A DNA stretch of 64,000 nt, taken from the NCBI RefSeq assembly GCF_963921235.1, contig NC_086107.1, positions 108,564,001-108,628,000 on the forward strand, given 5' to 3'. The stretch is from Mobula hypostoma (Eukaryota). The translations under genes and the position numbers were made by a program. Position 1 is the first letter of the stretch; each line of letters begins with the position of its first letter. The notes under the pieces were generated by a model. The model was not told the DNA's origin. It made no database searches and saw only the letters and a list, made by a program, of their open reading frames with translations. Positions 9,881 through 59,350 of this stretch are shown in pieces.

Positions 9881-10169
9881 ACCACTATGCTACCATGTCA
9901 TCCTTCTTCCCTTTCACTCTGTGAAACTGAGAAGCTGGTGATTTCCAGCAATACTACCTTCAACCCAATAAAATACCCCTTTGGATTCAATCTGCTAAGG
10001 TTTGTCATGATGTTAAAATTCTCTTCAAATTTTCTGGACAAGTTGGGGTAACACAGTAACTCAGCCAGCTGAGGTAACACACGCACACAATTCTAAGTTA
10101 ACAAGTCTTGACTCCCTGATCTGATCTGACTACAGCAGCCTGGGTCACATGTCCGTGGTGCTAAAATAC

Positions 10170-10955
10170 AATCTTGGAACAGAGGCGAATCATCACAAAT
10201 GCTCTCCCACAAACATCGGCAGGAAATGTCCACATTACACGATTTGTACCAGCAGGCCAACCTCCAGAGCACCACATAACATCAAAAGATGTAAGCACTC
10301 TGCAGGTTGCTCGGGATTGGAAAATGGATGTGGAATTGGAAAGAAAGCTTGTGTTTCCCCCAGACACTGCGGCAACAACATTCCAGCCAGACATGGTCCT
10401 GTGGTCCACAACAGCCAAGCTGGCGTATGTTGTGGAATTGACAGTACCATGGGAAGATGGTGTCAAAGAAGCTTATGAGAGGAAAAAGACCAAGTACTCT
10501 GAACTGGCAACTGAAGCTGCCCAGAATGGCTGGAAGACCAAGATTTTCCTTGTAGAAGTGAGATGCAGGGGATTCATTGCTACATCTACAACCAGTCTAT
10601 TGAAGAAGATGGGGGTGAGAGGTCACTCCCTCCAACAAGCAATCAAGTCCTTGTCAAATGCTGCAGAAGAAAGCAGCAATTGGATTTGGATTAAAAGGAA
10701 AGACAACAACTGGGCTGCAAGATGAAGACGGGAGGGTATAGAACTGAGGGGGGTGTATCTGGGACGCCAGGTAGCACCGTTGAGCCCTCTGGAGACGTCA
10801 TGGGCTTATCAACGAAACATCAAAAGAGGAGGGTGCCCACCGGATGACCCCAATGACGTACCTACCCTCCCTCCTTGTCACCACTCCAAACCCACTGCCA
10901 ACATCGAGAGTGCCGACTTACCCTAGGGATTGAAACATCAAGTCCTAGTAGCTCT
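10170..10955 (+). mobile_element. 5'-truncated RLE-encoding non-LTR retrotransposon (HERO/NeSL-like); restriction-like endonuclease ORF 10174-10725
   Basis: PDMVLWS...VVELTVPWE...AYERKKTKY...GWKT..FLVEVRCRGF is the PD-(D/E)xK RLE signature of early-branching LINEs; 183 open codons. Confidence 0.85.
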
Positions 10956-11777: not shown

Positions 11778-11889
11778 ATTCCAAAGATGTCCCAGTTAGT
11801 GGGTTAATTGGGCAGCACGGGTTCGTTGGGCCAAAGGGCCTGTTACCATGCTGCATCTCTAAAATAAACCAACCTAAACTAATAATGAA

Positions 11890-12160
11890 CACAATAAACT
11901 CTGCAGATGCTGGAAATCCAAAGCAACGCACACAAAGTGCTGGAGGAACTCAGGAGGTCAGGCTGCCATCTATGGAAATGAATAAACAGTCGACGTTTCG
12001 GGCCAAGACCCTTCCTCCAGACTGGAAAGTAAAGGGGAAGGGGCCAGGATAAAAAGGTGGGGCGGGGAAGGGGGCTAGTTGGAAGGTGATAGGTGTAGTC
12101 AGGTGGGTGGGAAAGGTCAAGGACTGAAGAAGAAGGAATCTGATAGGAGAGGAGAGCACA
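11890..12160 (-). mobile_element. Penelope-like 3' end; hammerhead with mutated CUGA core but intact GAAACGUC
   Basis: Reverse complement ccagtctggaggaagggtcttggcccgaaacgtcgactg (about 11987-12025). Confidence 0.75.
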
Positions 12161-12574
12161 TCCTGCCTTGACACTTTTTTACAGGAATTTACAGGAAAAA
12201 AATAAATACAATAAAATGTTATGAAAAGCTAAATACTAACAAACAGCCAATTTGCAAAAGAAGACCTAGATGCCCTTGCTTGAGACTCTCACAATCATGG
12301 ATACATCCTAACGTTTACCCTGTCACTGCTCCTTAGGATCATCACTCATTCTTCTGGACAAAGAATACAGACGAGACCTGCCTAGCCTGTCTTGATTGGA
12401 CAATCCTCTCACCCCAGGACTAGATATTAGAAATAGAAAGGAAAAAAGAAGTGCTGGAAACACTCAACATGTCAAGCAGCATCAGTGGAGGTAGAAACAT
12501 ACTGTGGCTAACGTTTCAGGTCAGAAACCCTTTGTCAGAACTGGAAAAGAGTTTCTCTTTCCAAAGATGTTGCC

Positions 12575-12866
12575 TGACCTACGGGAGTCTCTGGCATTCC
12601 CATTCAGAACAGAGATGCGAAGAATTTTTTTAGCCAGAGGGTGGTGGATCTATGGAATTTGTTGCCACGGGCAGCAGTGGAGGCCAAGTCATTGGGTGTA
12701 TTTAAGGCAGAGATTGATAGGTATCTGAGTAGCCAGGGCATCAAAGGTTATAGTGAGAAGGCGGGGGAGTGGGCTGAAATGGGAGAATGGATCAGTTCAT
12801 GATAAAATGGCAGAGTAGACTTGATGGGCCGAATGGCCGACTTCTGCTCCTTTGTCTTATGGTCTA
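12575..12866 (+). mobile_element. CR1-like 3' fragment
   Basis: PFRTEMRR...RVV.LWN motif; tail cttatggtct. Confidence 0.75.
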
Positions 12867-17645: not shown

Positions 17646-18549
17646 AGTATATATTTCTTATTGTAATGTTTAGTAACTTTTATGCATTACGTTGTACTGC
17701 TGTTGCAAAACAACTAAGTTCACAACATGTCAGTGATTAAAAAATATGATTCTGATTCTAATTCTGGTACTTTACCACCACATTTTACTTTTCGCATGTA
17801 CCTCTGGCATTGCTGTCAACACGCCAGAATCACCTCGGACTAGGATCTGAGTCTGGAGGAGTGGGAAACTATTATTTACCCATTCAGGATGAGAACTGTA
17901 GAAGGGCTAAAAAGTCTCAGTGCATTGTAAGGAGGCAGCGAATTCTGCTGCAGGCCTCTGGGTGATGCTCTACCTATGACTAGATTAACTCACCACCCAC
18001 ACTCTCTCTCTCTCTGTGCCCTAAAGTCGCTTGTTAAGAGCGAAGAACAAAGAAACTGCTTGCCTTACAGCAGCCCAGTAGCTGATCCTCAGTACTGAAA
18101 TTGTCAAAGAATCACAGGTTCCTGTACCTGAGGGCATGGGGGTAAGGGAGAAATTGTAGTCCCTACAAAATCAGGTAAAGATAAAGAGTCAGGGCCAGTA
18201 ATGGTCAAAGTGCAGGATGGTACGGGAACACCAATGCCCAGGAACAGACAGGACGCAGGAAGTGGTGGACACAACCCAATCCATCACAGGCAACGCCTTC
18301 CTGCTTCCTTTGAGTACATTTGTATGGAGTCCTGCCACAGCATCCTTCATCGAAGACCCCATCATCCAGGCCATGCTCTCTCCTCACTACTACTATGGAG
18401 TGGGAAGTACAGAAACCTCAAGTCCCACACCATCAGGACCAGGAACAGTTATCACCATACACCCATCAGCGTGGATAGCACTCACCTCAACTCTGAACTG
18501 ATTCTATGATCTACAGACTCTTTACAACTCATGCTCTCAGTTTTTTTTT

Positions 18550-19100
18550 TACAGTCCTGTTGAAGGGCCCTAAATGTCGACTCTTACTCCTCTCCATAGA
18601 TGCTGCTCGACATGCTGATTTCCTCCAGCTGGTCTGATCCTTTTACCTCTTCTACCTATCACTTCCCCCTGGGTCCCCTCCTCCTTCCCTTTCTTCCATG
18701 GTCCAGCCTCCTCTCCTGTCAGATTCCTTCTTCTCTCGACCTTCACCATTCCTATCCACCTTCAACTATCACATTCCGACTACCCTCCTTCCCTCCCCAC
18801 TATCTTTTTATTCTGGCATCTTCTCCCTTCCTTCCCAGTCCTGACGAAGGGTCTCGGCCCAAAACGCCAACTGTTTATTCATTTCCACAGGTGCTGCCTG
18901 ACCTGCCAAGTGCCCCCAGCATTTTATGTGTGCTGTTCTGGATTTCCAACCATCTGCAGAATTTCTTGTGTCTACGAAGAACAGACTCTTTACAACTCAC
19001 GTTCTCAGATTTTGTTTCAGTCCTGATGAAGGGCCCGAAATCTTGGCTGCTATTCATTTCCACAGATGCTGTTCTGGATTTCCAGCATCTGCAGAAGCTC
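18550..19100 (+). mobile_element. Three tandem PLE hammerhead/tail units inside a Rex1-like fragment
   Basis: cagtcctg.tgaaggg motifs near 18552, 18836 and 19018, each followed by the PLE tail. Confidence 0.65.
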
Positions 19101-19215
19101 TTATCTTTATTTTTCTTTATTTGCTAGTTTGTCTTCTTTGGCACATTGATTGTTTGTCGGTCTTTGTCTAGGTATAGTTTTTTTGTAAATACCATTGTAT
19201 TCCTTTATTCTTCAT

Positions 19216-19990
19216 GTCAAGTCAAGTCAAGTCACTTTTTATTGTCATTTCGACCATAACTGCTGGTACAGTACACAGTAAAAATGAGACAACGTTTTTC
19301 AGGACCATGGTGCTACATGAAACAATACAAAAACTACACTAGACTACAGACCTACCCAGGACTGCATAAAGTGCACAAAACAGTGCAGGCATTACAATAA
19401 ATAATAAACAAGACAATAGGCACAGTAGAGGGCAGTAGGTTGGTGTCAGTCCAGGCTCTGGGTATTGAGGAGTCTGATGGCGTGGGTGAAGAAACTGTTA
19501 CACAGTCTGGTCGAGAGAGCCCAAATGCTTCGGTGCCTTTTGCCAGATGGCAGGAGGGAGAAGAGTTTGTATGAGGGGTGCGTAGGTTCCTTCATAATGC
19601 TGTTGGCTTTACAGATGCAGCGTGTGGTGTAAATGTCTGTAATGGTGGGAACAGAGACCCCGATGATCTTCTCAGCTGACCTCACTATCCGCTGCAGTGT
19701 CTTGCGATCTGAGATGGTGCAATTTCCAAACCAGGCAGTGATGCAGCTGCTCAGGATGCTCTCAATACAACCTCTGTAGAACGTGGTGAGGATGGGGGGG
19801 TGGGAGATGGACTTTTCTCAGCCTTCGCAGAAAGTAGAGATGCTGCTGGGCTTTCTTTGCTATGGAGCTGGTGTTGAAGGACCAGGTGAGATTCTCCACC
19901 AGGTGAACACCAAGAAATTTGGTGCTCTTAACGATCTCTACAGAGGAGTCATCGATGTTCAGCAAAGAGTGGTCTCTCCATGTCCTCCTG
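19216..19990 (-). mobile_element. Rex1-like LINE 3' fragment
   Basis: KFLGVHL...AKKAQQHLYFLRRLRK and FSLLPSGKRHRSI motifs; (CTTGA)n tail. Confidence 0.8.
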
Positions 19991-20640
19991 AAGTTAATTG
20001 TCTGCAAGACAATGACTCTGAAGACAATATATAGTAACATATATGTGCTTTTATAATGAATTTACATTGAACTTTAAACTTTGACAATGTAAAATGGTGA
20101 GCTTAGTCATAAAGTCCAAGACAGGGTGTTCAGCTCTTCTTGTTCGTATCATTTATTACACAGCCACCTACACTAATTCACACTTCCATCAAATTCCATC
20201 TCCCTCCACCTCAATTTACCCGCCGCTCACAATTTTCAACAGCTAATTAACCTACCAACCAGTACATTGTGTCCTATAAGAGGAAACTGGAACACGTTGT
20301 CACCAGGAGTACGTGCAAACTCCACGGAGACGACGCTTGAAGTCAGGATCGAACTTGGGCTGTGAGGCAGCAGTACCATTCAACCAGTCTAGCTACATCG
20401 GAAGCCTGGACATCGACAAGAAATCCTTTTGGTAATAGGATGGAAAGATTTGATCAAGCAAAGAGCATTATTGAAGTAGGGAGCGAGGACAAAGACGTTC
20501 AGAGTGAGGACACAGGAAGGAGATCTAGTGCCAGTCACTAATGTGATGTTGGCAAACTTACAAGGAATGAAAATTTCCCATTTAATGAATGAATTACAAA
20601 GTCATGTCAACCTAACCCCACCTGAGAAGGTGAAAATTTA

Positions 20641-21196
20641 CTCTCAGTGGCCACTTGTTAGATACACCTTACACCTGCTCGTTAATGCAAATATCTAATC
20701 AGCCAATCATGTGGCAGCAACTCCTTGCATAAAAGCCTGCAGACATGGTCAAGAGGTTCAGACCAAACACCAAAATGGGGAAGAAATGTGATCTAAGTGA
20801 CTTTGGCCATGGAATGATTGTTGGTGCCAGATGGGGTGGTTTGAGTATCTCAGAAACTGCAGATCTCCTGGGATTTTCACACACAACAGTCTCTAGAGTT
20901 TACAGAGAATGGTGTGGAAAACATAAGACATCCAGTGAGCAGCAGTTCTGTGAGCAAAAATGCTTTGTTAATGAGAGAGGTCAGAGGAGAATGGCCAGAC
21001 TGGTTCAAGCCGAAAGGAAGGTGATAGTAACTCAAACTACCACAAGTTACAACAGTGGTATGCAGGAGAGCATCTTTGAACATACAACACATCGAAGCTT
21101 GAAGTGGATGGGCTACAGCAGCAGAAGACCATGAACGTACACTCAGTGGCCACTTTATTTTGTACAGGAGGTACCAAATAAAGTGGCCACTGAGTG
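20641..21196 (+). mobile_element. Internally deleted Tc1 transposon carrying the transposase N-terminus (ORF 20745-21134)
   Basis: TA-flanked TIRs c(t/a)ctcagtggccact...agtggccactgagtg; MGKKCDLSDF.HGMIVGAR..GLSISETADLLGFSHTTVSRVYREW HTH region; no DDE domain. Confidence 0.85.
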
Positions 21197-28416: not shown

Positions 28417-30345
28417 CCTTGCTTGTGAAGTTTCCCACAATGGAGATAGGTTCCATGCCACGGACAATACCTGTGACATCTTCTATCACCGTCTAACTTG
28501 TCCTCCTTCTCCTCCTCCAAACTTATTATTCTGGCATCTTCCCCCTTTCTTTCCAGTCTTGATGAAGGATCTTAGTCCAAAACGTTGACCGCCTACTCGC
28601 TTCCATGGATGCTGCCTGACCTGCTGTGTTCCTCCAGCATTTTGCGTGTGTTGATTTGTGGGAAGCATATTGCTTATGTGGAACACGTACAGAGTGAAAG
28701 ATAATCCACACTGATTGCTTAACTCTGCTGCAGGTTGCACAGCAGAGGGGAAAAATTGTCTTGAAGTTTGAAGATGTTTCTCTTATGGTCAACAGGTGGT
28801 AGGTCTGATGGAAGGTCACACTGTTACATTAAACGATATATGATACTCTAATAATGCCTGTTAAATCTGCCCCTTCAATCTAACTCATGCCAACAGGGAC
28901 ACTGTGAATACAAGATATCCAATTGATCGTTCACCCAGAGATAGGAAGAAATTTCTTAACCCAGAATCTGACAGTTCTTTAGAATTCCTTAAGACCCAGA
29001 TGCAGACTGCCTCCAAGACAGAGATGGATAAATTTTAGTATATTAAGAGAACTGAGCAGAGTAAAGCGGGGTTGAAGTTACGTCATTACCAAAGGCGCAC
29101 CTCCCTCCGCTAGTCTGCAAGGTCTAGCACCTGCTTAGCCCCGCGATCAGGGTCCCGTGAAGCCATGGAGCAGGTGACGGATGGTCATATGAGCAGCTGG
29201 TGCATATCACAAGTCTTGGTTTTGTGACCACTGATGCCAGGCGGACAATCTCTGAAGAGTATCGATAATGGCTGGGGTCACCCATCTTGTAAAGACACTG
29301 CCCAGGAGAACAGGGCTTGTGATGTGCATCACCTGCTCATACAACCAGAAGAAGGCAATGGAAAACCACTTTAATTGTATTTATTTATTTACTTGTTGAG
29401 AAGCCACACTGCCCAATTTAATCCCCTGATTTAACCCTAGCCTAATCATGGGAAAATTTTACAATGACCAATTAATCTACCAACCAGTATGCCTTAGGAC
29501 TGTGGGTGGAAACCGGAGCACCTGGAGGAAACCCATGTGATCATGGGGTGAACGTACAAACTCCTTACGGGCAGCAGCGGGAAATAAACCAGAGTTGCCT
29601 GCACTGTGGAGCGTTGTGCTAACCACTTTGCTACTGTGCCACCTCTACTTCTGTAGAAAAATTCGTCAAGAACAATCATGGTCTTGGATAGGCCACAATC
29701 CCCAATGGCATATAATGGTGATGAAAACTATTGGTGCTGAATTAAGGAATAAATCAAGATCCTATCAAATCATGGATTGTTTATGAGGGGCTGAATGGCC
29801 TCTTCCTACTTCCCTTTCTTCTAATTTCTTTGAAGGACTGCTGCCCCTTTAAGGGGTATGTAACACTTCAGGCTGCTGCATTGTGCGTTGGAAGTTCCAG
29901 AGGCAGGCTGCAGGAACAACTGAACAAACACAAGAGATTCTGCAGATGCTGGAAATCCAGAACAACACACACAAAATGCTGGAGGAACTCAGCAGGAATT
30001 CGGGCGGAGGCTCTGATGAAAGGTCTCAGACTGCAGTGTCGGCTGTTTGTTCCTATCCACAGATGCTGCCTGACCTGCTGAGTTACTCCGGCATTTTGTG
30101 CTTGTCCACACAAACACACACACTTTGCTTGAGGTCGCTGTGTGTGCTTCATGTGCGTTGGCGAGTGCAGACTACAAGGTGCCGGTGTAGCTGTGAGACA
30201 CAGGCGGTGTGCTGAGGGCAAGACAAGTCCAGATCCACTCACACCATTCCCAGAGCAGGACTGGTACGCACCTTCCAAGCACATGATGCCTCTCGGCATG
30301 GTGAGGGGAATCACTGTGGGGGAGGGACGACAGCTGAATTTATTT

Positions 30346-30565
30346 GCACAAAATAATCTGCAGATGCCGGGGTCAAAGCAACACTCACAACACGCTGGAG
30401 GAACTCAGCAGGTTGGGCAGCATCCGTGGGAAAGATCGGTCGACGTTTCGGGCCGGAACTCTTCGTCAGGACAGACTTGACGAAGGGTTCCGGCCTGAAA
30501 CATCGACCGATCTTTTCCACGGATGCTGCCCGACCTGCTGAGTTCCTCCAGCGTGTTTTGAGTGT
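30346..30565. mobile_element. 220-bp palindromic PLE-derived element with two inverted hammerheads and a 14-bp TSD
   Basis: TSD agctgaatttattt at 30332-30345 and 30566-30579; about 90-bp inverted arms. Confidence 0.85.
30439..30472 (-). ncRNA. Minimal type-I hammerhead ribozyme motif (near intact)
   Basis: Reverse complement gtc-CTGACGA-a-gagttccggccc-GAAA-cgTC-gac; one stem II mismatch. Confidence 0.65.
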
Positions 30566-30869
30566 AGCTGAATTTATTTTCTCCTTTCTTTTCCTTACTG
30601 GGGTTGAGTTCAGCAAATATGAACTACCCTCCTTACCACACATATTCTGTATCTCACCCATATTCTGTATCGCCCACACTCTTTACCCTCATCCATGTTC
30701 TGCACCTTGGGGAATGGCAGGGTGGGGATCACGTGCAGATAGAAAGGATTAGTTGAATTGACATTATGCTTGGCACAACTTTGTGGACCGAAGAACCTGT
30801 TCCTTTCCTGTACTGTTGTACGTTCCATGGGGAATCACAGCCCAGAGCGCCATGATAGAGTTGCCCTAC

Positions 30870-32075: not shown

Positions 32076-32261
32076 ACTGTCCAATCATCCTTCACCCAAG
32101 AATTCCCCTTCCCAACTTGTAAGTTGGAGATTTAGACTCAGAGACGAATAGCAATCACAGTGCCAGGCACTATTGTAGGTAGGAGGCAGGTATGACGAAG
32201 GGAACACTTTCAGTACGTTGGATGAACTCAGCAGGTCGGGCAGCATCAGTTAGAAACAATG

Positions 32262-32297
32262 AGTCGAAGTTTCGGGCTGGAACCCTTCGTCAGGACT
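32262..32297 (-). ncRNA. Minimal hammerhead motif with a stem III palindrome mutation
   Basis: Reverse complement agtc-CTGACGA-agggttccagccc-GAAA-ctTC-gact. Confidence 0.6.
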
Positions 32298-32785
32298 GAA
32301 GAATGAAAGATGGGGAAGGATTTGAAGAATGCTTGTAGCGTCAGTTGATAGACCAGTAATTTGAAAGACAAAGGGGTGGGGGAGGGGAAGCATTGACGTC
32401 ATAGCCCTGAAAACAATGGGTGGTAGAAGAAGGAGGCAGAACCATGAGGGAGCTGGGGGAGGGGGTAGAGTGAAATAGGGATAGAGGAAGGGAGGGGGAG
32501 GGAATTACCGGAAGTTGGAGAATTCTATGTCCATACCAAGGGGCTGGAGACTACCTAGACGGTATATGAGGTGTTGCTCCTCCAACCTGAGTTTAGCCTC
32601 ATCATGGCAGTAGAGGAGGCCATGTATGGACATAGAATTGGTTCCACCTCCTTCTTCTACTACCCATTGTTTTCGGGGCTATGACATCAATGCTTCCCCT
32701 CCCCCACCCCTTTATCTTTCAAATTACTGGTCTTTCAACTGACGCTACAAGCATTCTTCAAATTCTTCCCCATCTTTCATTCTTC

Positions 32786-32821
32786 AGTCCTGACGAAGGG
32801 TTCCGACCCGAAACGTCGACT
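32786..32821 (+). ncRNA. Intact minimal type-I hammerhead ribozyme motif; predicted cleavage after C32817
   Basis: Stem I agtc/gact, CTGACGA, extra A, stem II gggt-tccg-accc, GAAA, ACGT palindrome, GTC cleavage triplet. Confidence 0.8.
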
Positions 32822-33764
32822 CAGCGTTTCTGACTGATGTTGCCCGACCTGCTGAGTTCATCCAGCGTACTGAAAGTGTTGCTTTGATCTTTTACAGCAT
32901 CTGCAGATTATTTTGTGTTTAAGGTATGATGAAGGGCCTTGGCCTGAAATGTTAACTCTTTACTCTTTTCCATAGATGCTGCCTGACCTTCTGAGCTCCT
33001 CCAGCATTTTGTGTGTGTTGCTTTGAACGTCCAGCATCTGCAGATTCTCCTGTACTTTTGAGGAGGCAGGCATTGTTGTAGAGGGGCTTCATGATACGAA
33101 AACTCCTTCTCTCCTGCCTACACTCAGTAATGAGCTCAATATGAAGATACGAGTTGTGGAAACGCCAATGCCCTTGAATGGAAGATGCTACAAAATTTAA
33201 TGGATGTTGTCCAGCCCATCAGAGGTAAAGCCTTCCCACAACTGAGCACATCTGTAGGAAGCGCTGTCGCAGGAAAGCAGCACCTATCATCAAGGAACAC
33301 CATCTTCTCACTGCTGCCATCAGGAAGGAGATACAGGAGCTTCAGGTGGTGCACCACCAGGAACAGTTATTACCCCTCAGCCATCAGAATCCTGAACCAG
33401 AGGGGATAATTTCTCGGACCCCAACACTGAACTGTTCCAACAACCCACTTTCAAGGACTGTTTGTCACATGCTTTGAATACTACTGCTTATTTATTATTG
33501 TTATCGTTTTGTTTGTTTTATTTTGCTTTTTGTACTTGTCTTTTGCACTGTGAATGCCTGCAAGAAAAGGGATCTCAGAGATGTATATGGTCACATATAT
33601 GTACTTTGATAATAGATTTACTTTGGACTTTGATGACATCAGAGCGATGAGGTCGATCGACTTCTCCACTGTGATCCCGGGTAGGGGTAGCATGATGCAA
33701 ATCCTAGCACACAACACCAGTTTCTCTTGCACAGTCCTGGTTACTTCCTTGATATAGGGAGGGG

Positions 33765-39161: not shown

Positions 39162-40446
39162 CTCTACACTACCGTGACAACACTTTACAAAGCTGTGCAG
39201 GCTAGTGGATTAATTGGTCTCACGGATGCAAGCTCTTCAGCCCTGAATGGCCTGTTAGTGTAGTGTGTTTGTAAATAAAAATAAGATTAACAACTATCTC
39301 TATATTATCTTTAGCCACAGATGAGATGTCAGAAGTCAGGAGAATAGACAATGTTATTCCTTTGTTTAAGAAAAACAATGGGAAACCAGGAAATTATAGG
39401 CCAGTGAACCTAAGATCTGTGGTAGGAAAACGCTTGGAGAAGATTCTTAAGGACCAGATTAAGTCATATATTATGGATGCCATCATGGCTTTCTGGGCAG
39501 CGGGGGCTCATTGGCTGCGGCAGGCAGCTCATCTAGGAGAAGAAAGACTGATTTCAAACCTCAGCTGCCTTGTGGCTATGGGGAAGGCTTCAGGAGTAAA
39601 CCTTGAGGAAAAATCTGGAGGTGGAATTCTAAAGACAGTCTTACACTGAGTTCAACATTGACTGGTAACTCCTACGATGCCGCTGGTACCAAGCCGTATC
39701 GGTCTCTGTTGATCACTTGGATTCATTAGCGGCGTGGAGGGTAGAGAAAGCCTTCTACATGGGCAACAGCTTGTTCTCCATATCGTACTGCCCCTGCTTG
39801 CATATTGACTTTGACAGCAAGGATACAACATCCATGGTAAACTTCGACCAACGGAGGGCCGTTATACATCCTGGCTTTGTTGTCGAGAGATCTACCTCAA
39901 AATTTGATTGAGTTTTGTAAGGAAGTGAAGCAGATGATTGACAAAGGTAGTGCATTAAAGTGCTGTCTTCGTAGACTTCAGTAAAGCATTTGAACACATC
40001 TCTTATGGTAGGACGGCCTAGAAGATTAAGCCACATGGGATCCAAGGTGAGTTGATAAACTGGAAAGAAAATTGGCTTGGTCATAGATTCAATTCAAATC
40101 AAGTTTGATTGTCATTCAACCATAGATGAATACACATGAATACAGCCAAACAGGACAGTGTTACTCTGGGGTCAAGGTACAAAACGTAGAACCAATAATC
40201 ACACACAGCACAAACCAGACATAGCACATATAAGATAGAAAGATACAGACACGCAATAAAAGAGTCCAAACTTAAGCCATCCAATGACACAGATGACCAC
40301 AACAGAGCTTATACAATAGATGACAGAGAATAGGGGTAGAGAGCTGTTTCTCTGAGTGTTGGTCTCTGACCAGTAGTATCCCGCAAAGATTACTATTAGG
40401 ATCTTGGCAGTACACAATTGGTCACAGACCCACAGTCATCTTAGAT

Positions 40447-40970
40447 ACACTCAGGGTCCACTTTGTTCGGTACACCTGCTCCTTAATACAAACATCTAAT
40501 CAGCCAATCATGTGGCAGCAACTCAATGCATAAAAGCATGCAGACATGGTCAAAAGGTTCAGTTGTTGTTCAGACCAAACATCAGGATGGGGGATAAAAA
40601 GTGATGTAGGTGATTTTGACCATGGAATGATTGTTGGTGCCAGATTGGATGGTTTGAGTATCTCAGAAACAGCTGATCTCCGGGGATTTTCAGACACAGC
40701 AGTCTCTGGAGTTTACAAGAGAATGGTGTGAGAAATGAAAAGCATCCAGTGAGCAGCAGTTCTTTGGGCAAAAATGCCTTGTTAATGAGAGACGTCAGAG
40801 GGGATTGGTCAGATTGGTTTAAGCTGACAGGAAGGCAACGGCAACTCAAATAACCACACATTATAACAGTGGTGCGCAGAAGAGCATCCTTGTGGGCACA
40901 ACATATCGAACCTTGAAGTGGATGGGCTACAGCAGCAGAAGACCACGGACATTCTCTCAGTGGTCAGTTT
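40447..40970 (+). mobile_element. Tc1 deletion derivative (family of 20641)
   Basis: Same TIR and frameshifted HTH coding sequence. Confidence 0.8.
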
Positions 40971-41727
40971 ATGAGATATCTACCCAAGGTGGCAGCTGTG
41001 TGTATTTTCTATGTTCTAAGTTTCAGTCTACACCACCCAGCCAGACTTGCTCTCTTCTCCCATTTCCCATTGAGCAGGAGATACAAAAGCCTGAAAGAAC
41101 ATAGCACCACTCTCAAGGACAGCTTCTATCCCACTGTTATCAGACTCTGGTACAATACAATGGACTCTTGACATCACAATCTAGCTCGCTATGATCTTGT
41201 TCTTACTCTTTTGGTAATGTTTAAACTTTATTCTGCATTGTTACTGTTTTATCCTGTTCTACCTCAATGCACTGTGTCATGATCTAATCTGTATGAACCG
41301 TATGCAGGACAAGTTTTTCACTGTATCTTGGTGCATATGGCAACAATAAACCAAAACTATAACTAACATCTGTCAGCAATGCCATGTCAGTAGTAACAGA
41401 TATGATAGTCTAAGAGGATCTTAGCCACGTGAACAGGCAGGGAAAGGGGGGATATGGATGACATGCAGGAGATGGGGTTAGTTTAAACAGGCAAGAACTT
41501 TGTGGGTTGAGGAGCCTGACCCTGTGTTGTAATGTTTATGTTCTCTGTTCTAAAGCTTCCCCCCAGAACAGGGGCAGCACAGGTCCGACGCAGGGCAAAG
41601 CTCTGGATCACACACTCCCAGGGCAGGGGTAACTTCTTCTACAAAAGGATTTAGATACAAAGTGAATCTCCCCTTGCACTGTCCCATCAAATACTCCAGT
41701 CTAGAATAAGCACAATTTAAATGTATA

Positions 41728-42010: not shown

Positions 42011-42442
42011 ATAAAAAATTTTTAAAAATACATCTCCCTCGACACCGTCCCAACAAATAACCCTGCGGCTGGGACAAGTGCATTTAAACAACAGGTGAAG
42101 CTACTCTGTCATGTCTCATTGATCCTTCCCAAGGCAGAATTATACACACAAAAAATAAAATTTGTCACCAGGGCCCAGGTCATTACACCAAACGGGTGAG
42201 TGTGATGTCTTTTCTTCACAGGCCTTGGGACGACAAGTTGTGACGAGATGCAGACTCCTATCACGACAGTGGAGCTGAAACCATCAAACTGTGAGGGAAA
42301 AATTCCCAGAAGCCAATTATACCGTTGAAATGTGTCAACACATGGCAGCCAGGCTCTGCGCAGTGTCAGTCCCATAGACAGCGCACAGACCGACATCTGC
42401 AGAGAGAACCAATCCCTGTCTTCTCCCCGTGGCACCTGAATG

Positions 42443-44877
42443 AGTGTCTCACTGTCAGAGGGACAGTACTGAGGGAGTGTCTCACTGTCAGAGGGACAGT
42501 ACTGAGGAAGTGTCTCACTGTCAGAGGGACAGTACTGAAGGAGTATCACACTGTCAGAGGGACAGTACTGAGGGAGTATCTCACTGTCAGAGGGACAGTA
42601 CTGAAGGAGTATCACACTGTCAGAGGGACAGTACTGAGGGAGTATCTCACTGTCGGAGGGACAGTACTGAGGGAGTGTCTCACTGTCGGAGGGACAGTAC
42701 TGAGGGAGTGTCACACTGTCGGAGGGACAGTACTGAGGGAGTGTCTCACTGTCGGAGGGACAGTACTGAGGGAGTTTCTCACTGTCGGAGGGACAGTACT
42801 GAGGGAGTGTCTCACTGTCAGAGGGACGGTACTGAGGGAGTGCCGCACTGTCAGAGGGACAATACTGAGGGAGTGTCTCACTGTCAGAGGGACAGTACTG
42901 AGGGAGTGCCACACTGTCAGAGGGACAGTACTGAGGGAGTGTCTCACTGTCAGAGGGACGGTACTGAGGGAGTGCCGCACTGTCAGAGGGACAGTACTGA
43001 GGGAGTGTCTCACTGTCGGAGGGACAGTACTGAGGGAGTGTCTCACTGTCAGAGGGACAGTACCGAGGGAGTGCCACACTGTCAGAGGGACGGTACTGAG
43101 GGACTGTCTCACTGTCAGAGGGACAGTACCGAGGGAGTGCCACACTGTCAGAGGGACAGTACTGAGGGAGTGTCACACTGTCAGAGGGACGGTACTGAGG
43201 GAGTGTAACACTGTAAGAGGGACAGTACCGACGGAGTGTCTCACTGTCGGAGGGACAGTACCAAGGGAGTGTCACACTGTCAGAGGGACAGTACTGAGGG
43301 AGTGTCTCACTGTCAGAGGGACAGTACTGAGGGAGTGTCACACTGTCAGAGGAACAGTACCGAGGGAGTGTTACACTGTCAGAGGGACAGTACTGACGGA
43401 GTGCCACACTGTCAGAGGGACGGTACCGAGGGAGTGTCACACTGTCGGAGGGACGGTACTGAGGGAGTGTCTCACTGTCGGAGGGACGGTACTGACAGAG
43501 TGTCTCACTGTGGGAGGGACAGTACTGAGGGAGTGTCACACTGTCGGAGGGACAGTACTGAGGGAGTGTCACACTGTCAGAGGGACGGTACTGAGGGAGT
43601 GTCTCACTGTCAGAGGGACGGTACCGAGGGAGTGTAACACTGTCAGAGGGACGGTACCGAGGGAGTGTCTCACTGTCGGAGGGACAGTACCGAGGGAGTG
43701 TCTCACTGTCGGAGGGACAGTACCGAGGGAGTGTCACACTGTCGGAGGGACAGTACAGAGGGAGTGTCTCACTATCGGAGGGACAGTACGGAGGGAGTGC
43801 CTCACTGTCAGAGGGACAGTACCGAGGGAGTGTCTCACTGTCGTAGGGACAGTACTGAGGGAGTGTCTCACTGTCAGAGGGACAGTACGGAGGGAGTGTC
43901 TCACTGTCGTAGGGGCAGTACGGAGGGAGTGTCTCACTATCAGAGGGACAGTACGGAGGGAGTGTCTCACTGTCAGAGGGACGGTACTGAGGGAATGTCA
44001 CACTGTCAGAGGGACGATACTGAGGGAGTGTCACACTGTCAGAGGGACAGTACTGAGGGAGTGTCTCACTGTCAGAGGGACAGCACCGAGGGAGTGTCAC
44101 ACTGTCGGAGGGACGGTACTGAGGGAGTGTCTCACTGTCAGAGGGACGGTACGGAGGGAGTGTCACACTGTCAGAGGGACGGTACTGAGGGAGTGTCACA
44201 CTGTCAGAGGGACAGTACTGAGGGAGTGTCTCACTGTCGGAGGGACGGTACTGAGGGAGTGTCTCACTGTCAGAGGGATGGTACCGAGGGAGTGTCTCAC
44301 TGTCAGAGGGACAGTAGCGAGGGAGTGTCTCACTGTCAGAGGGACAGTACCGAGGGAGTGTCTCACTGTCAGAGTGACAGTACCGAGGGAGTGTCTCACT
44401 GTTGGAGGGACAGTACTGAGGGAGTGATGCACTGTCAGAGGGACGGTACTGAGGGAGTGCCTCACTGTCAGAGGGACAGTACTGAGGGAGTGTCTCACTG
44501 TCGGAGGGACAGTACTGAGGGAGTGTCTCACTGTCGGAGGGACAGTACTGAGGGAGTGTCGCACTGTCAGAGGGACAGTACCGAGGGAATGTCACACTGT
44601 CAGAGGGACAGTACTGAGGGAGTGTCTCACTGTCGGAGGTACAGTACTGAGGGAGTGTCTCACTGTTGGAGGGACAGTACTGAGGGAGTGCCTCACTGTC
44701 GGAGGGACAGCACTGAGGGAGTGTCACACTGTCAGAGGGACAGTACTGACGGAGTGTCTCACTGTCAGAGGGACGGTACTGAGGGAGTGTCTCACTGTCA
44801 GAGGGACAGTACTGAGGGAGTGTCTCACTGTCATAGGGACAGCACTGAGGGAGTGTCACACTGTCAGAGGGACAGTA
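42443..44877. repeat. 33-bp minisatellite, about 74 units (consensus ctcactgtcagagggacagtactgagggagtgt)
   Basis: Directly visible; 11-aa periodicity in all overlapping ORFs. Confidence 0.97.
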
Positions 44878-45364
44878 TTCTCCTTCCTTACTCCCTTACC
44901 TTTTTATTGTGGCATCTTTCCATTCGTAAAGAAGGCTCTCAATCCGAAACGTCAACCTGCTGAGTTCCTCCAGCAACTTGTGTGTGTTGCTTTGGATTTT
45001 CAGCATCTGCAGAACCTCTCATGTTTCTGTTTTTTTTAAATTTTTTGTTTTATTTGATTTTGATTTTATTTCATTTGGAGGTGCAGCATGACTCAGGCCA
45101 TTTGGGCCCAACGACTCACTTAGCTTAAGCACAGGACAATTTCAATGACCAATTACCCTACGATACGTTATGCCTTTGGACTGTCGGAGGAAACCAGAGC
45201 ACCCAGAGGAAACCCACACTGCCATGGGGAGATCTACAAGCTTCTTGTAGACGTCACCAGAGATGAACTCTGAACTCCGGCACCCCCATCTGTAATACGG
45301 TTGCGCTAACTGCCACGCTAATGTGGTGCCCTTTTCTCTCTTTTGAACAAGTTTTCCACTTTGT

Positions 45365-45865: not shown

Positions 45866-46082
45866 CCACTTTGTATCAATGCACACAAAATGCTGGAGGA
45901 ACTCAGCATCTATGGAGGTAAACAAATATTTGATGTACTGTATAAGGTCAAGACCCTTCATCAGAGCTGTGTGTGTTGATCCAGATTTCCATCATCTGCA
46001 CTCTCTCTTTTGCTTTCACTTTGTACCTCTCCCACTCTCTGCCACCCACACCTACCTCACTCTTCATCCCCCACCCCCCAGG

Positions 46083-47465: not shown

Positions 47466-49681
47466 GGTTGTCATTCAGTGTAAGAAGTGATAATATATCA
47501 CCACTCTGTACCTCAGCCTTTCAATATACATTCTACCGATCATTAGTTAAACCAGAATATGGTATCTGCAGCACAGACAGGCCAGGCTCCATGCCGGGCA
47601 GAGGGCTTAATTTCGGGTCACCTTGTGCCTGTTGAGATGATGACGGGGACATCAGAGCTCATTCGCCTCAAAATGAGCAGCCAGAACCAAATATTCAGGG
47701 TTTGACAGAAAGTGCAGAACATTGGGAGGGATGCAGGAACCTGGGTTGGAGGTGGATCAAGAGGCAAGTGAGGCTTTGGACCTTCCCCACCACAAATTAA
47801 TGACCCTTCCCTAAATACATCACTTCTACCTCATCCCCAACATGAATTACTCCATCTTTTCCCCTCTCAAACACAAGTTCATCTTCACTCTTGCTGGCAA
47901 CAACCCACCTCATTTAAAGCACACCTTCAGTTAAAAGCTTGGAGCATGAGCAATGGGGCCTGGGACAGGATCGAAGTTTCAGTATCTATGTTAACTCAAA
48001 TTGAATGTTTCTTCTATTCTGCCCCTTTTATTTTAACTGCTTCATTTCCAGTAGCATTTATTGCCTACCCATTAACCCCCTTGAGAAGGTGACGGTGAAA
48101 CTCCATCTGGAACCATTGCAGTCCATCTGGGGCAAACATTTCCACTAAGTTGCTGGAGGGTGCATTCCAGGATTTAGGTTCAGTGGCAATGACAGGCCAG
48201 TGGTATACTTGATAAGGAACCAGAGGTATATTCAATGTTGGACTAATGGTATATCCAATGAGGGACCACTGATAACATATTCAACAACAGACTAGTGGCA
48301 CATTCCCCCAGATCTCCTTAATCACTCCTCCATTCAGCTGAGGAGATCCCATTCCTTCCACAAGCCTCTCCTCTTCAAAGGTTTCAGGATAGGTTGCTTA
48401 ATGTCAGCCTGACCGCACACTTATGAACTGCAAACGGTGACTGGTGTTCTGCCCTCCGGGCAATTCATTTATGTCTTTTTCTATGTGATTAAATACATTC
48501 AGTTTTTATTTTAGTGAGCGGTTGCTGGTTTGCATTAGGCCACTTCCTGTGCTGTCAGGAAGTAGTAAGCAGGAAAGCACATTGGCTCACAAGAGTTCAG
48601 AGATTTACGTCAGGAACGAAAGAAGCTTCTATCTAAAGCCATCCTGTTGTTTCCCCAGCAGAAGCATTGCCTGTAAATTGACGTTATATTGCTTAGAAGT
48701 TAATCTAACGGTATCAATAAGATTTTGCTGAAATAGAATGCTGTTTTTGAGTTTATTAGACACTAACCTATACGCTAATGGTTTGCACATACTAGATACC
48801 TGTAGTACTTACCTGTTGGAATCCTATAATGTTTGCATACTGAAAACTTAATTAAATTCTTACTTATCTGTGTGTATTTACTTGTGTGAATGGAACAACA
48901 CAGTAATTACACAGCACTTTGCTGTTTTTCAGTTTCACTCCTTTTTCACTTTATCGTGCCTGAGTCTGCAATTATACCCAAGGCGCTCGGAGGCTATACC
49001 CCGACTCTCATGTCATTTTTGAATGGAGTTTGCCTGACTGTCTAGTCAATGTTACAACACCTCAGCGCGGGCGGTACGACTGGCGTGTTAAAGTTATAGA
49101 ACTCAGAATTAAAACTGGTTAATTTTTTTGGTTCATCTTGTCACGCGAAAGTGACAAAAGAATGGGTGGGTGGTTGGGGACACAGCAAACAGAGAATAAA
49201 CCTCCTCAGGACGGAACTGGTGCAGAGGAGCCAGCAGATGTTTCTATGTTGTAAACGCAAGAGATTCTGCAGATGCAGGAAATCTTTAGCAACACACGCA
49301 AAATGCTGGAGGAACTCAACAAGTTAGGCAGCATCTGTGGAGAGGAGTTAATAGTTGACAGTTCTGGCCAAGATCCTTCATCAGAATTGGAAAGGAGAAA
49401 GGGGGGAAGAAGCCAGAATAAGATGCTGAGGGGAGGGGAAGGAGCACAAGTGGGCAGATGAGGGATGAGGGGTGGGGCAGAGGGGGATAAAGTAAGAAGC
49501 AGGGAGGTACTAGGTGGAAGAGCTAAAGGGCTGAATAAGAATGATTCTAATAGGAGAGGACTGTGGACTATGGAAGAAAGGAGGAGGGGAACCAGAGGGA
49601 GGTCACAATGTCCTGTGGCCCTAACCTAATCATTCAAGGCACGAGAATGGATTAGCATGCCGTGTGTGGGCACTTGCTGTA

Positions 49682-49999: not shown

Positions 50000-51630
50000 T
50001 ATATTACTATGCTCTACACATTACAACAAAGGCTGTGTGTATATTAATTGACATGGATAACAGAAAACAGTCATAATCAATGGGTCATGTTCTGACGAGC
50101 ATTTGGAGACCGGTGGGATGTCACAGGCATCGTCGCTGGGAATTCATTTGGTTATCTCTTTAGCCATGTACAAAGTGCTAGAGAAACTCAACAGGTCAGG
50201 CAGCATCTATGAAGGAGAATGAGCCATCGATGTAAATGGAGAATCAATGGTGATGACTTGGATGGCGGATGCTGTAGGCAGACTTGCCAATGCTACAAAG
50301 TCAGGAAGACCAAAAAAGAAGTTGACAGATGATGCACAATGTGAGAAAATGAGAAGGAGAAATGCAGGGGCAGATTATTATTTACGCAGAGTGAGATCAC
50401 AAAATCTTACAGTACAGGGAGATCCCGGAGCAGGATAAACAAAGTGCAGCAGCTAAGTAGGAAGCCTAAATGGGTGTTACACTTATTGTGAGAGATGTGG
50501 AGTATAAAAGCAGGGGAATATTTGCAATTTCATGTAGTGTGTGCAGTTTTGGCTTACATACTGAAGGAAGGATGTAGTCACTTCACAGCCAGTGTGAAGA
50601 AGGTTCACCAGCTCATTTCCAGAGATGAAGGGATTGACCTAAAGAGTAAGTTTTTCTGGTTTGGCTGATAGTCATTGGAATTTTGAAGAATGAGAGGTGA
50701 TTTTATGGAAATTGATGATAATGGATGCTGAGAAAATGTTTCACTTCAATGAAGTATCTCGAAAAAGACTCTGGTTTCAGCCCATATTCCAAAGATGTAT
50801 GGGTTAGTAGTTTAATTGGTCACATGGGTGTAATTGGGCGGTATGGGCTTGTTGGCTCTGTTACTAGAGCTCTCTAAATCTAAATTTAAGTTTACTGTTC
50901 CTGTTCCTGAATCTTCACTACCTGAAGACGTGCAGTGCTGTACAATTCTGTACCCTTCCTTTTAAGTATTTACATTTTGTATAGATTGATTCACCTCAGT
51001 TTGTTGTGTCATGGGTCTGGAGCTTCTCTGGGACAATCTTACCCCTGTTACCTCCCCAGTGATCCAATCCAACTTGGAACTCCAAGACCCAAGAGGTTCT
51101 GCAGACGCTGAATTAATCAGAGTAATACCTACAAAATGCTGGAGGAACTCAACAAGTCAGGCAGCATCTAAGGAATGGAATAAAGAGTCGATGTTTTGGG
51201 CTGAAGCCATTCATCAGAAATCTGAGAACAATTGGGCCAACCACAAAGAAACAGGACTAAGTTTCACACAGGTGATCCAGAACAGTAAAGATAAGTATAA
51301 CACAGGAGAAAAGTACAGGAAAAAGAGATATATAGGTTTAGTATTTGTTAGGTCACATTCTGGAGTTAGGGGATAGAACAAATATCAATCTCAACAGCAA
51401 CTAACCTTCAGATCTGAATATGGATTGTAGATTAAATTTAAAATGCAGCTCAGAACAGGAAACATCCAGTTGACTGAGATGTCTGCATATGCATGAATAC
51501 AATCAACACCCTACGTCATGCATACAACTCAGAGATCTCAGTAATTAACACTTATTTTGGGTGTGTTGGTGGAAAAATCAGGCATTTGAAAAAAATTACA
51601 TATAATTCAAAAGAAGCATCATGAGAGCAT

Positions 51631-54911: not shown

Positions 54912-55962
54912 CTTTTGCCAGGTGGATTCAGAATTGGCTTGCCTGCAGAAGGCAGAGGGAGTACATTCAGATTGGAGGATTGTGATTAGTGGTATCCCAC
55001 AAGGATCTGTTCTGGGACCTCTACTTTATTAACGACCTGGATGTGGGGGGTAGAAGGATGGGTTGGCATGTTTGCAGACGACACAAAGGTTGGTGGTGTT
55101 GTGGATAGTGTAGAGGATTGTTGAAGTTTGCAGAGAGACATTGATAGGATGCAGAAGTGGGCTGAGAAGTGGCAGATGGAGTTCAACCCGGTGAAGTGTG
55201 AGGTGGTACACTTTGGAAGGACAAACTCCAAGGCAGAGTACAAAGTAAATGGCAGGATACTTGGTAGTGTGGAGGAGCAGAGGGATCTGGGGGTACATGT
55301 CCACAGATCCCTGAAAGTTGCCTCACAGGTAGATAGGGTAGTTAAGGAAGCTTATGGGGTGTTAGCTTTCATAAGTCGAGGGATAGAGTTTAAGAGTCGC
55401 GATGTAACGATGCAGCTCTATAAAACTCTGGTTAGGCCACACTTGAGTACTGTGTCCAGTTCTGGTCGCCTCACTATAGGAAGGATGTGGAAGTATTGGA
55501 AAGGGTACAGAGGAGATTTACCAGGATGCTGCCTGGTTTAGAGAGTATGGATTATGATCAGAGATTAAGGGAGCTAGGACTTTACTCTTTGGAGAGAAGG
55601 AGGATGAGAGGAGACATGATAGAGGTGTACAAGATAATAAGAGGATTAGATAGAGTGGATAGCCAGCGCCTCTTCCCCAGGGCCCCACTGCTCAATACAA
55701 GAGGACATGACTTTAAGGTAAGGGGTGGGAAGTTCAAAGGGGATATTAGAGGAAGGTTTTTCACTCAGAGAGTGGTTGGTGCGTGGAATGCACTGCCTGA
55801 GTCAGTGGTGGAGGCAGATACACTAGTGAAGTTTAAGAGACTACTAGACAGGTATATGGAGGAATTTAAGGTGGGGGGTTATATGGGAGGCAGAGTTTAA
55901 GGGTCGGCACAACATTGTGGGCCGAAGGGCCTGTACTGTGCTGTACTATTCTATGTCTATGT
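54912..55962 (+). mobile_element. Young CR1/HER1-like LINE, about 1 kb 3' fragment with RT C-terminus
   Basis: SGIPQGSVLGP, FADDTK, WAEKWQMEFNPVKC, LYKTLVRPHL, LERVQRRFTRML, FFTQRVVGAWNALP; few frameshifts. Confidence 0.9.
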
Positions 55963-56409: not shown

Positions 56410-57035
56410 CCCATAAAGCCATACGACAAAGGAGCAGAATTGGCCATTTGGCCCATTGAGTATTCTCCACCATTTCGTCATGGTTGATCCATTTTACCTC
56501 TCAGCCCCAATCTCCTGTCTTCTCCCCACATCCCTTCATGCCCTGAAGAATCTATCAACCTCTGCTTTAACTATGCTCAATGACTTGGCCTCCATAGCAA
56601 CCTGTGGCAATGAATTCAACAGATTCACCACTCTCGAGCTAAAGGAATTCTTCCTCATCTCTGATCTAAAAGGATGCCCCTCTCTTCTGAGGCTGCATCC
56701 TCTGGTCCTAGACTCAACAACCATAGGAAACGTGTTCTCCACATCCACTCTATCGCGGCCTTTCGACATCCAATAGGTTTCATTGAGGTACCATTCATTC
56801 TTCTGAATTCCAGTGAGTACAAGGCCAGAGCCAACAAATGCTCCTCATATAACAAGCCTTTCAATCCTGGAATGATTTTCATGAACATCCTTTGAACCTT
56901 CTCCAGTTTCAGCACATCCTTTCTTAGATAAGGGACCCAAAACTGTTCACAACACTCCAAGTGAGGCCTTACCAGTGTCTTATAAAGCCTCAACATAACA
57001 TCCTTGCTTCTATATTCTAGTCCTCTCGAAATGAA
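56410..57035 (-). mobile_element. CR1-like 3' fragment
   Basis: MLRLYKTLVRPHLECCEQFW...RVVNLLNSLP motifs. Confidence 0.85.
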
Positions 57036-58814
57036 TGGAGGAACTCCTATCCTGAGGAACTCCTACAGTAATGTCCCAGGACTAGGATGATTCATGGCCA
57101 ATAATCACAAGCATCTTTCTTTACATGAGATATGACTCCAGCCATTGGGGTATCTTTCCTTTGATGTTTGGTGACTCCAACTTTCCAGGATCCTTGATGT
57201 CAACTCAGTCAAATAACGTCTTGATGTCAAGTGTAGTCACTTTCATCTCATCTCTGAATTCAGCTCTGCTGTCTGTGTTTAGATCCAGGCTGTGGTAATA
57301 ACACAGATGGCTATTTTGGCCCATCAAGCTGATGCTATGTCACAGTGCAATCCCATTTATACTAAGCCCCTACCAAGTTTTCCTGGAATCCATTCTCCCC
57401 ACATCTGCACCAACTCTACCCTGCTATAAATTCATCAAGTGATAGATACAGCATGGAAACAGGTTCTTCAGCCCATCTAGCCCATGCTGGCGATCAATTT
57501 TATCCAAATCCTACCCCAACCCCTTTTACTCTCCTTATTTTTCCATCACTTTCCTCTGCACTCACCAGAGATCATTTACAGTAGCCATTTAACTCACCAA
57601 CCGGCACATTTTTAGAGGAAACCTTGGAGGGAATAGGGGAGAAAATGCCACACCGATAGCACTAGAGGTCAGTATTGAGCCTGGCACCCTGGGTTTATGC
57701 GGCACTGTCTCTACCAGTTGCACCACAGTGCCACCCTGTGAGTGCCCTGGATGAGAAACGGCTCTGTTGAAGGAGACTGAGATTCTGGCATTGCAGGTTT
57801 GAAGATTCGAACATGGAGGTTTGACCAGTACCTGGAGTTAAAGTTTGGTGTCGACCACCTCCTTGGGCCGAAGGTCTTCTACCATTAAAGAACAATTCCA
57901 ATTGTATTCATGTGCGGTCAATAAACTGACAGCTCCTCTTACCCTTCATGAACAGTTCGTTGGACATGTAACATGTTGTATGAAGTAGGTGATCATGGTC
58001 TTTCCATGACTATAACTGTTCTTTGCAAATTTTTCTACAGAAGTGGTGGCTTGTCATTGCCATCTCCTGGGCAGTGTCTTTACAAGACGGGTGACCCCCA
58101 GCCATTATCAGTACTCTTCAAAGATTACCTGCTTGGATGAAAGGTCAGTGGTCAGTGGTTGCATAACCAGCTGCTCGTAGGACCATCCACCACCAGCTCC
58201 CACGGCTTCACGTGACCCTGACCTGGGTGCTAAGCATGTGCCACACCTTGCCCAAGGAGGGAAGGAACACCTAGCACCTCCTTTGGTAGAGACGTATCTC
58301 CACCCATAAGAACAGTACATCCGAATGATAGGAGGCATAGATAGAGTGGACAGCCAGTACATCTTTTCCAAGGGCACAGATAACAAAATCAAAGGGGCAT
58401 AGGGTGAATGGAGGAAGGTATAGGGAGGATGTCAGAGGTTGGGTTTTATACGCAGAGCGTGAGTGCATGGAACGCCCTGCTAGGGTTGGTGGTAGAGGCG
58501 GAGACATTAGGGAGATTTAAGAGACTCTTAGATAAATACATGGATGAAATATAAGAGCAGGGCTATATGGAAGGGGAGGGTTAGATTTGATATTGGAGTA
58601 GGTTAAAAGGTCAGCACAACATTGTGGTCTGAAGGGCCTGTACTATGCTGTACTGTTCTATATTCTATATTCCATGAATACCTTCCACACTCTGAATATA
58701 CCGATGATAAATATGGTTCCAGACAGCTCAGTTCAATAACTCTGAGTATCTCATGCCCACTTAACCATCAACATGGCTCCGCAATGTGACAAATCACCAA
58801 AGGTTCAGGTACAG

Positions 58815-59350
58815 GAGGCCTCCCCTCCTGGCGATGAGGCCACACTCAGGTTGGAGAAGCAACATCTCACATTCCATCTGGGTCGCCCCCCCACAACCTG
58901 ATGGCATGAATATCGATTTCTTGAACTTCTGGTAATTGTGCTCCACCCCCATCACCATTCCCCATTCTTGTTTACCCCTCACACCTTCTCTTCTTACCCG
59001 CCTATCACCCAGTCTCTGGTGCTCCTCCCCCTTCCCTTTCTTCCATGGTCTTCTGTCCTCTCCTATCAGATTCCACCTTCTCCAGACCTTTATCTCTTCC
59101 ACCAATCAACTTCCCAGCTTTTTACGGCACGCCTCCCCCTCTCCCGGTTTCACCTATCACCTGCTACCTTGTACTTCTTCCTCCCCTCCCCCGACCTTCT
59201 AATTCTGACTTCTTCCCCCTTCCTTTCCAGTCCTGATGAAAGATCTCGGCCCGAAAGGTCGACTGTTTATTCCCATCCATAGATGCTGCCTGACCTGCTG
59301 AGCTCCTCCAGCACGTTGTGTGTATTGCTGTAGATTTCCAGCATCTACAC
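58815..59350 (+). mobile_element. Penelope-like (Neptune-type) 3' fragment: GIY-YIG end, 3' UTR, hammerhead, tail
   Basis: DEATLRLEKQHLTFHLG..QPDGMNIDF; hammerhead at 59228-59265. Confidence 0.85.
59228..59265 (+). ncRNA. Minimal hammerhead motif with weakened stems II and III
   Basis: cagtc-CTGATGA-aagatctcggccc-GAAA-ggTC-gactg; 5-bp stem I. Confidence 0.55.

Follow-up and report, generated by a model that had tools for sequence, protein, structure and literature searches.

Minimal hammerhead ribozymes (min-HHR) have been described in the pseudo-LTRs (pLTRs) of metazoan Penelope-like elements (PLEs) by Cervera and De la Pena (2014; PMC4209133), where most motifs are solo truncated copies and opposite-strand pairs. 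The S. mansoni motif reported there showed no cleavage as a monomer and low cleavage as a dimer. A second system is PAc, the Poseidon element of Anolis carolinensis (Frangieh et al. 2024, PMC11167929). According to that study the PAc ribozyme cleaves only with protein, RNA ends at its cut position were not observed, and unprocessed RNA is the main insertion substrate; the tail of the element is explained by two internal reverse-transcription start sites. Among PLE proteins, a CX2-5CxxC linker is given as the mark of Neptune and Nematis (PMC8557442). Hammerhead retrozymes are reported from one chondrichthyan genome in a preprint (10.64898/2026.07.22.740005), which may cover the ray family described here. 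No shark or ray report of PLE minimal hammerheads was found in the literature searched, with subscription journals, Repbase and Dfam lying outside the search.

An intact motif at 32786-32821

The window is the whole stretch of Mobula hypostoma DNA that was analysed, 64,000 nucleotides in length. Its 36 nt at 32786-32821 (+) read AGUC CUGACGA A GGGU UCCG ACCC GAAA CG UC GACU and divide as follows.

32786-32789 (+): 5' strand of stem I
32790-32796 (+): core CUGACGA
32797 (+): extra A after A9
32798-32809 (+): stem II with UCCG loop
32810-32813 (+): GAAA
32814-32815 (+): CG palindrome
32816 (+): U16.1
32817 (+): C17, with the predicted cut 3' of it
32818-32821 (+): 3' strand of stem I

Judged by its sequence, this is an intact minimal type I hammerhead motif of Penelope-like element ends. 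All core bases (11/11), C17 and the ACGU palindrome are present, and stems I and II have 4 bp each. Stem I is open-ended and stem II closed by its loop, with G10.1-C11.1 and an extra base after A9. Only C15.2-G16.2 lies between A15.1 and U16.1, and helix III has no loop. The motif agrees with the >80% consensus in Fig. S3 of PMC4209133. The original prediction had named a minimal type I hammerhead of PLE ends whose palindromic stem III remnant needs a second copy, which fits the account in that paper; the position of the predicted cut, 3' of C32817, and the 2-nt gap from A15.1 to U16.1 likewise agree with the sequence.

Rfam gave no match at the gathering threshold in the 64-kb window. The pattern CTGANGAN{12,16}GAAACGTC matched twice, at 32790-32817 (+) and 30442-30469 (-), compared with 0.00 matches in 100 shuffles.

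Copies of the family in the window

An iterated nhmmer profile (E<=1e-3) identified 25 fragments in the 64-kb window, while the same profile gave no match at E<=1 in the reversed window. Merged into 18 clusters, they span 4,946 bp, about 7.7% of the window, and contain every one of the motif sites listed beforehand (20/20). The copies come from this one window and were gathered with a profile that includes the core. The ribozyme alignment consists of 19 copies and omits the one at 44919 as well as five tail-only or too decayed fragments. Within it only 32786+ combines all the features given above (1/19), which bears out the earlier view of this copy as intact and most others as decayed. The ACGU palindrome is kept in 32786+, 30474-, 12023-, 12542- and 28555+. 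The core and ACGU are both present in 30474-, the stem II of which has a mismatch, and 32297- carries G16.2>U. The catalytic half is retained with at least 3 stem II pairs in 4/19 copies, and the U16.1-H17 cleavage strand in 17/19. Copies in the window include the following.

2984-3209 (+): truncated copy that keeps the catalytic half and stem II but has lost the cleavage-site strand
6005-6131 (+): old divergent copy with its 5' start at the core
11889-12165 (-): truncated copy with mutations at C3 and U4 and an intact substrate half
12418-12607: old divergent inverted pair
18549-19132 (+): three same-strand copies (18553, 18837, 19019) at a spacing of 284 and 182 nt, all broken
28468-28678 (+): truncated decayed copy
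29928-30132: inverted insertion with a tail-only arm (-) and a decayed ribozyme arm (+) starting at the core
44919-45023 (+): heavily decayed copy with an internal deletion
45868-45968 (-): short decayed copy
49255-49597 (-): decayed truncated copy that includes 213 nt of UTR
51086-51221 (-): short decayed copy with its 5' start at the core

No clear target duplication was found at the inverted pair near 12.5 kb. The copies at 18553 and 19019 have in common a stem II deletion and ~50 nt of flank; here a duplicated unit (18513-18608 and 18981-19074), made up of the end of another repeat and the stem II-deleted ribozyme, flanks the longer copy. An extrapolation to the genome from 1-2 intact copies per 64 kb gave 0.4-113 per Mb, a range too wide to be of use, and was dropped.

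Other repeats are also present in the window. A 33-bp tandem repeat at 42442-44877 (73.8 copies, 91% matches), in which open frames reach 928 aa (-) and 710 aa (+), is probably a minisatellite. Remnants of other mobile elements occur at 10165-10722, 19449-20061, 20733-21131, 39275-39646, 55125-55897 and 56655-57059. These remnants include RT fragments and a helix-turn-helix transposase-like frame, duplicated near 40471-40972, and one of their frames resembles a LINE restriction-like endonuclease.

The carrier element and its protein

Three loci extend into an endonuclease C-terminus, at 32508-32633 (-), 58783-58929 (+) and 62807-62950 (+), in agreement with the original prediction of three loci tied to a GIY-YIG C-terminus. 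At all three the ribozyme sits in the pLTR, downstream of the PLE ORF.

32508-32633 (-): last 42 codons of the PLE ORF, the GIY-YIG endonuclease C-terminus, 93% identical to the C-terminus of homolog P0003
58783-59365 (+): older truncated copy with a frameshifted endonuclease remnant (58783-58929) and a decayed ribozyme at 59229
62807-63285 (+): older truncated copy that begins in the endonuclease C-terminus (62807-62950) and whose ribozyme, at 63200, is decayed

The 42-residue peptide matched 8 proteins among 14 candidates at 79-95% identity, all 8 from Hypanus, Hemitrygon or Mobula, which makes a stingray-group ray the likely source of the window. The stingray homologs P0003, P0005 and P0006 each have the CX2-5CxxC linker as well as an RT motif, and match GIY-YIG weakly in Pfam (E 0.0005-0.002), under the curated cut-off. 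Homologs with this domain order are 76-93% identical over the peptide of the window. Thirty longer homologs of 803-999 aa are 40-52% identical, with the linker detected by regex in 27/30, and no homolog of at least 801 aa exceeds 52% identity. The window contributes only the last 40-50 codons of the ORF, the linker being known from the homologs. Because no full-length family member was seen, the clade assignment rests on the linker, which Nematis shares, and not on a tree; so placed, the carrier would be a Neptune-type Penelope-like retrotransposon.

Five of the eight matched proteins (P0001, P0002, P0003, P0007, P0008) are stingray gene models with isoforms that include the endonuclease end of the element. 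The models are those of ATP synthase c, VKORC1L1, DIPK1C, ABHD14A and ULK1, and the inclusion reflects either exonisation or an annotation artefact. A weak match to the endonuclease region of P0005 at 3463-3552 (E 0.012) is perhaps a remnant of an older PLE subfamily.

In metagenome loci from other organisms, neither the UTR nor the tail of the ray family had a DNA match among the matches listed (121 of ~5,400 stretches), and a PLE ORF match was present in 6/131 loci among the matches listed. In one of them, L031, the ORF is 47% identical to P0006, and a ribozyme follows 139 nt after it, with an inverted second ribozyme upstream. The metagenome contig concerned (L030/L031, 1060-3609) holds a near-complete Neptune-type element with its ribozyme downstream and the inverted one upstream.

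Structure of the insertions

The flagged copy is the inverted arm of a single insertion, 32203-32921.

32188-32202 (+): left target-site duplication, 15 bp, with 1 mismatch to the right one
32203-32633 (-): main 5'-truncated copy, with endonuclease C-terminus, UTR, ribozyme (32262-32297, the copy with G16.2>U) and a short downstream segment
32639-32921 (+): inverted 5'-truncated arm, with 147 nt of UTR, ribozyme and downstream segment
32881-32921 (+): 41-nt tail, absent from the minus arm
32922-32936 (+): right target-site duplication; overlaps an older family copy at its 5' edge
32926-33052 (+): older decayed copy (C3>A, AUGU, U17, A1.1), hit by the younger element at its 5' edge

The arms (32639-32921 (+) and 32203-32444 (-)) are identical at 226 of 242 nt and differ at 16. 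As the target duplication overlaps the 5' edge of the older copy, what looks like a tandem at 32925 is the target of a nested insertion. The pair at 32786-32919 was considered as a tandem dimer and rejected, being a nested insertion into a broken copy. The younger element landed inside the 5' edge of the older copy's ribozyme; from this one case, a preference for inserting into its own pLTR is possible.

A second head-to-head insertion shows the same arrangement.

30346-30565: second head-to-head insertion, both arms starting at the ribozyme 5' edge

Its left arm (-) has an intact core and a 35-nt extra tail, and a perfect 14-bp target duplication (30332-30345 and 30566-30579) encloses it. An inverted arm, a one-sided tail and a target duplication were thus seen together in 2 insertions. 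Microsatellite targeting was seen at neither of the two insertions examined.

At the inversion junction of the first insertion (32626-32640 / 32519-32533), 14 nt of the element's endonuclease end are repeated in inverted orientation. This suggests a microhomology-driven template switch, in which a few templated bases may have been copied before a jump to the UTR. The segment that follows the ribozyme (32836-32920 and equivalent tails) contains a pyrimidine tract ending in CAG or TAG and then, in some copies, an ATG-led frame of ~23 codons. It could be a splice acceptor or an ORF start; the ATG-led frame had no match among 38 proteins.

Decay and covariation

Four CpGs fall on functional positions of the motif: C7-G8, C11.1-G12, C15.2-G16.2 and C17-G1.1. 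Across the 19 copies, differences occupy 54/151 CpG cells compared with 13/170 cells of the other core (Fisher p=4e-10), a count that assumes C as the ancestral N7 and becomes 39/113 for CpG when the N7-G8 pair is left out. Non-CpG stem bases differ in 44/241 cells. In the tail, with two copies omitted, 56/532 cells differ, and core and tail compare at p=0.30, a comparison in which the tail rate is raised by subfamily differences. CpG observed/expected for the window is 0.36. Because decay concentrates at CpG and conservation of the core does not exceed that of the tail, there is no sign of selection on the inserted copies, although 19 copies give little power.

Covariation of the stems was weak in the 15/19 copies scored, which exclude four that are truncated at the 5' end or have indels in stem II. 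The score of 0.273 compared with 0.200 was reached by 4/500 shuffles, and CpG decay or junction bases can mimic it; unconstrained alignments can also attain the level found in the window. The apparent C2.2-G1.2 compensation in 30008+ was discounted, since the start of this copy lies near C3 and junction sequence may have supplied the two bases. Metagenome motifs from other organisms comprise 73 distinct sequences among the matches listed, and in these the free stem I is paired at 171/219 positions compared with 105.5 after shuffling; 0/2000 shuffles reach this level, though the rows are related and one family is dominant. Ten pattern matches in viral contigs, with stem I in 0/8 distinct ones, were taken as chance.

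Origin of the copies

The 5' ends of the copies range from +1 to -449 relative to the motif. They extend 81-449 nt upstream, into the UTR and ORF of the element, in 9/19 copies and start <=13 nt upstream of C3 in the other 10/19, which cluster within about 14 nt; the interval from about -14 to -80 holds no start among the 19. For six more fragments, the start is downstream or obscured by decay. The short copies hold the whole motif, so their template RNA was uncut at C17.

On this evidence the copies look like decaying 5'-truncated PLE ends, neither a SINE nor a host regulator. We consider it highly probable that they are the 5'-truncated, often inverted pLTR ends of a Neptune-type PLE, that each carries a minimal type I hammerhead, and that they decay neutrally. 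The ribozyme would likely have weak activity on the RNA of the element itself, either as a dimer or assisted by protein. By analogy with PAc (PMC11167929), the element's protein would nick both DNA strands, and reverse transcription would begin at two internal sites ~35-41 nt apart, downstream of the ribozyme. These two starts would yield arms with and without the tail. Copies starting just upstream of C3 may reflect run-off of the cDNA at the 5' end of an uncleaved transcript, or a template switch; for the clustered 5' ends, run-off and stalling or template switching at the hairpin are equally open. Host CpG methylation and deamination would then disable the genomic copies, because all four CpG pairs fall on functional positions, and the copy at 32786 would be intact because it is young.

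Another reading is that the motif has lost cleavage even where the element is active, and acts in the pLTR as a structural or protein-binding signal. That the short copies carry the entire uncut ribozyme is in keeping with this, as is the report that catalytic mutants leave PAc insertion in vitro unchanged (PMC11167929); Naiad PLEs, moreover, are described as thriving without the motif (PMC8557442). The predicted monomer also hides the core, with G5-G8 paired to C15.2-C17. Monomer folding of 5 stretches gave z-scores of -1.2 to +1.0 and no stability signal. For 32786, models that omit tertiary contacts and were run with no positive control place the double-hammerhead fold at -14.1 kcal/mol compared with a dimer minimum of -29.7. 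The active dimer is so far above this minimum that folding does not predict activity. Against a purely structural role, distant PLE families retain the catalytic core (PMC4209133), the PAc ribozyme does cleave with protein (PMC11167929), and stem I of the metagenome motifs, for the matches listed and with their related rows, is paired well beyond the shuffled level. We regard a non-cleaving motif as unlikely.

The short copies could instead form a non-autonomous SINE-like or retrozyme-like unit of ~130-150 nt, consisting of ribozyme and tail, with its own defined 5' end and mobilised in trans by the Neptune protein. The original prediction had likewise proposed a SINE-like family; its short ORF-less copies do exist, in the ten that start close to C3 with none in the gap upstream, and to that extent part of the idea survives, but a SINE-like family is not supported. 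In A. vaga, pLTR sequence is reported to be enough in cis for trans mobilisation (PMC3846280), and retrozymes are described as PLE derivatives, including in one chondrichthyan genome (10.64898/2026.07.22.740005). However, the starts are scattered over ~14 nt and not at one base. With the common 5' end spread in this way and the other nine copies running 81-449 nt upstream, the family does not qualify as a SINE, and truncated-PLE arms, duplications and tails account for its members. Short and long arms also lie under one target duplication in single insertions. Tandem units each with a complete ribozyme, by which non-LTR retrozymes are recognised, do not occur in the window: TRF found no tandem array of ribozyme units, and the sole same-strand cluster (18553-19019) is broken. 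A separate mobile unit therefore appears distinctly unlikely, and truncated ends of the Neptune-type PLE are preferred.

It had also been suggested that the copies cleave host transcripts that read through two of them. This was not upheld, since the downstream copy at 133 nt is an older broken target and the near-intact copies lie on the opposite strand; no competent same-strand tandem partner was found for 32786+. A variant would have dispersed copies cut host read-through or intronic RNA jointly, one giving the catalytic half and another, even if decayed, the cleavage strand. The numbers of catalytic halves (4/19) and U16.1-H17 strands (17/19) would allow this, and under a lenient pairing rule 4/9 same-strand partners of 32786+ are acceptable, of which the closest is at a distance of 2,778 nt. 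Yet the nearest pair, with 30008+, is predicted at -6.1 kcal/mol compared with a cofold minimum of -22.0, and in the copy at 133 nt the 2.1-1.1 pair does not form. Half-sites kilobases apart could pair on paper, but the pairing is predicted to be unstable. Pfam revealed no host coding exon in the non-repeat frames of at least 50 aa that it covered (144/223), with which an intron remains compatible; the single match among those 144 frames was to a model that we take to match LINE remnants. With no host exon found and no excess conservation of the core, cleavage of host transcripts finds no support here. The PAc ribozyme, for its part, requires its protein and leaves no RNA ends at its site (PMC11167929). 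The copies probably do not cut host RNA, and cutting by split halves is very improbable. Equally remote is the broader form of the idea, in which ray pre-mRNAs carry split hammerheads, a young copy cutting a decayed one kilobases away with the aid of protein or a chaperone, as a genome-wide intronic or read-through cutter held in check by CpG deamination; if true, it would matter much more.

Comparison with known systems

The literature already describes the motif, its dimer logic and how common it is in truncated solo copies and in opposite-strand pairs (PMC4209133), and the main gain is the extension of PLE minimal hammerheads to rays, at high density; no cartilaginous fish was found in the motif list of Fig. 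S3 of that paper. Like the min-HHR described there, the ray motif is of type I, with a CUGANGA core, one extra base after A9 and G10.1-C11.1, and it shares the palindromic 15.2-16.2 without loop 3 and the U-rich 5' flank. The copies are likewise mostly solo and truncated, with opposite-strand pairs 100-700 bp apart. Stem II has 4 bp in the ray and 7-8 bp in S. mansoni, whereas the Neptune example from Acropora digitifera has the 4-bp stem II and 4-nt loop of the ray motif (PMC4209133). The CpGs on functional positions suggest a simple reason for some of the 'extreme variability' that the same paper found puzzling at the DNA level in these motifs.

As in the Neptune EN+ PLEs (PMC8557442), the close homologs carry an RT followed by the CX2-5CxxC linker, with GIY-YIG at the C-terminus. 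The insertions resemble the layout described in PMC3846280, with 5' truncation, an inverted adjacent pLTR, a 30-40 bp tail at one end, a target duplication and nesting in a Penelope copy, but the ray target duplications are 14-15 bp and those in A. vaga 8-10 bp. With the non-LTR retrozymes (10.64898/2026.07.22.740005; PMC7229834) the family shares a type I hammerhead, an origin in the PLE pLTR and short non-coding units. Retrozymes are described, however, as tandem repeats with complete ribozymes in consecutive units (10.64898/2026.07.22.740005), and none of these occur in the ray window.

The ray element is like PAc (PMC11167929) in that the ribozyme lies in the pLTR, two 3' ends differ by the tail, and uncleaved RNA appears to be the template. 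Unlike the ray element, PAc belongs to the Poseidon clade and is without the linker. The 5' ends clustered upstream of the core provide genomic support for an uncleaved insertion template in a Neptune-type element, for which the in vitro precedent is Poseidon.
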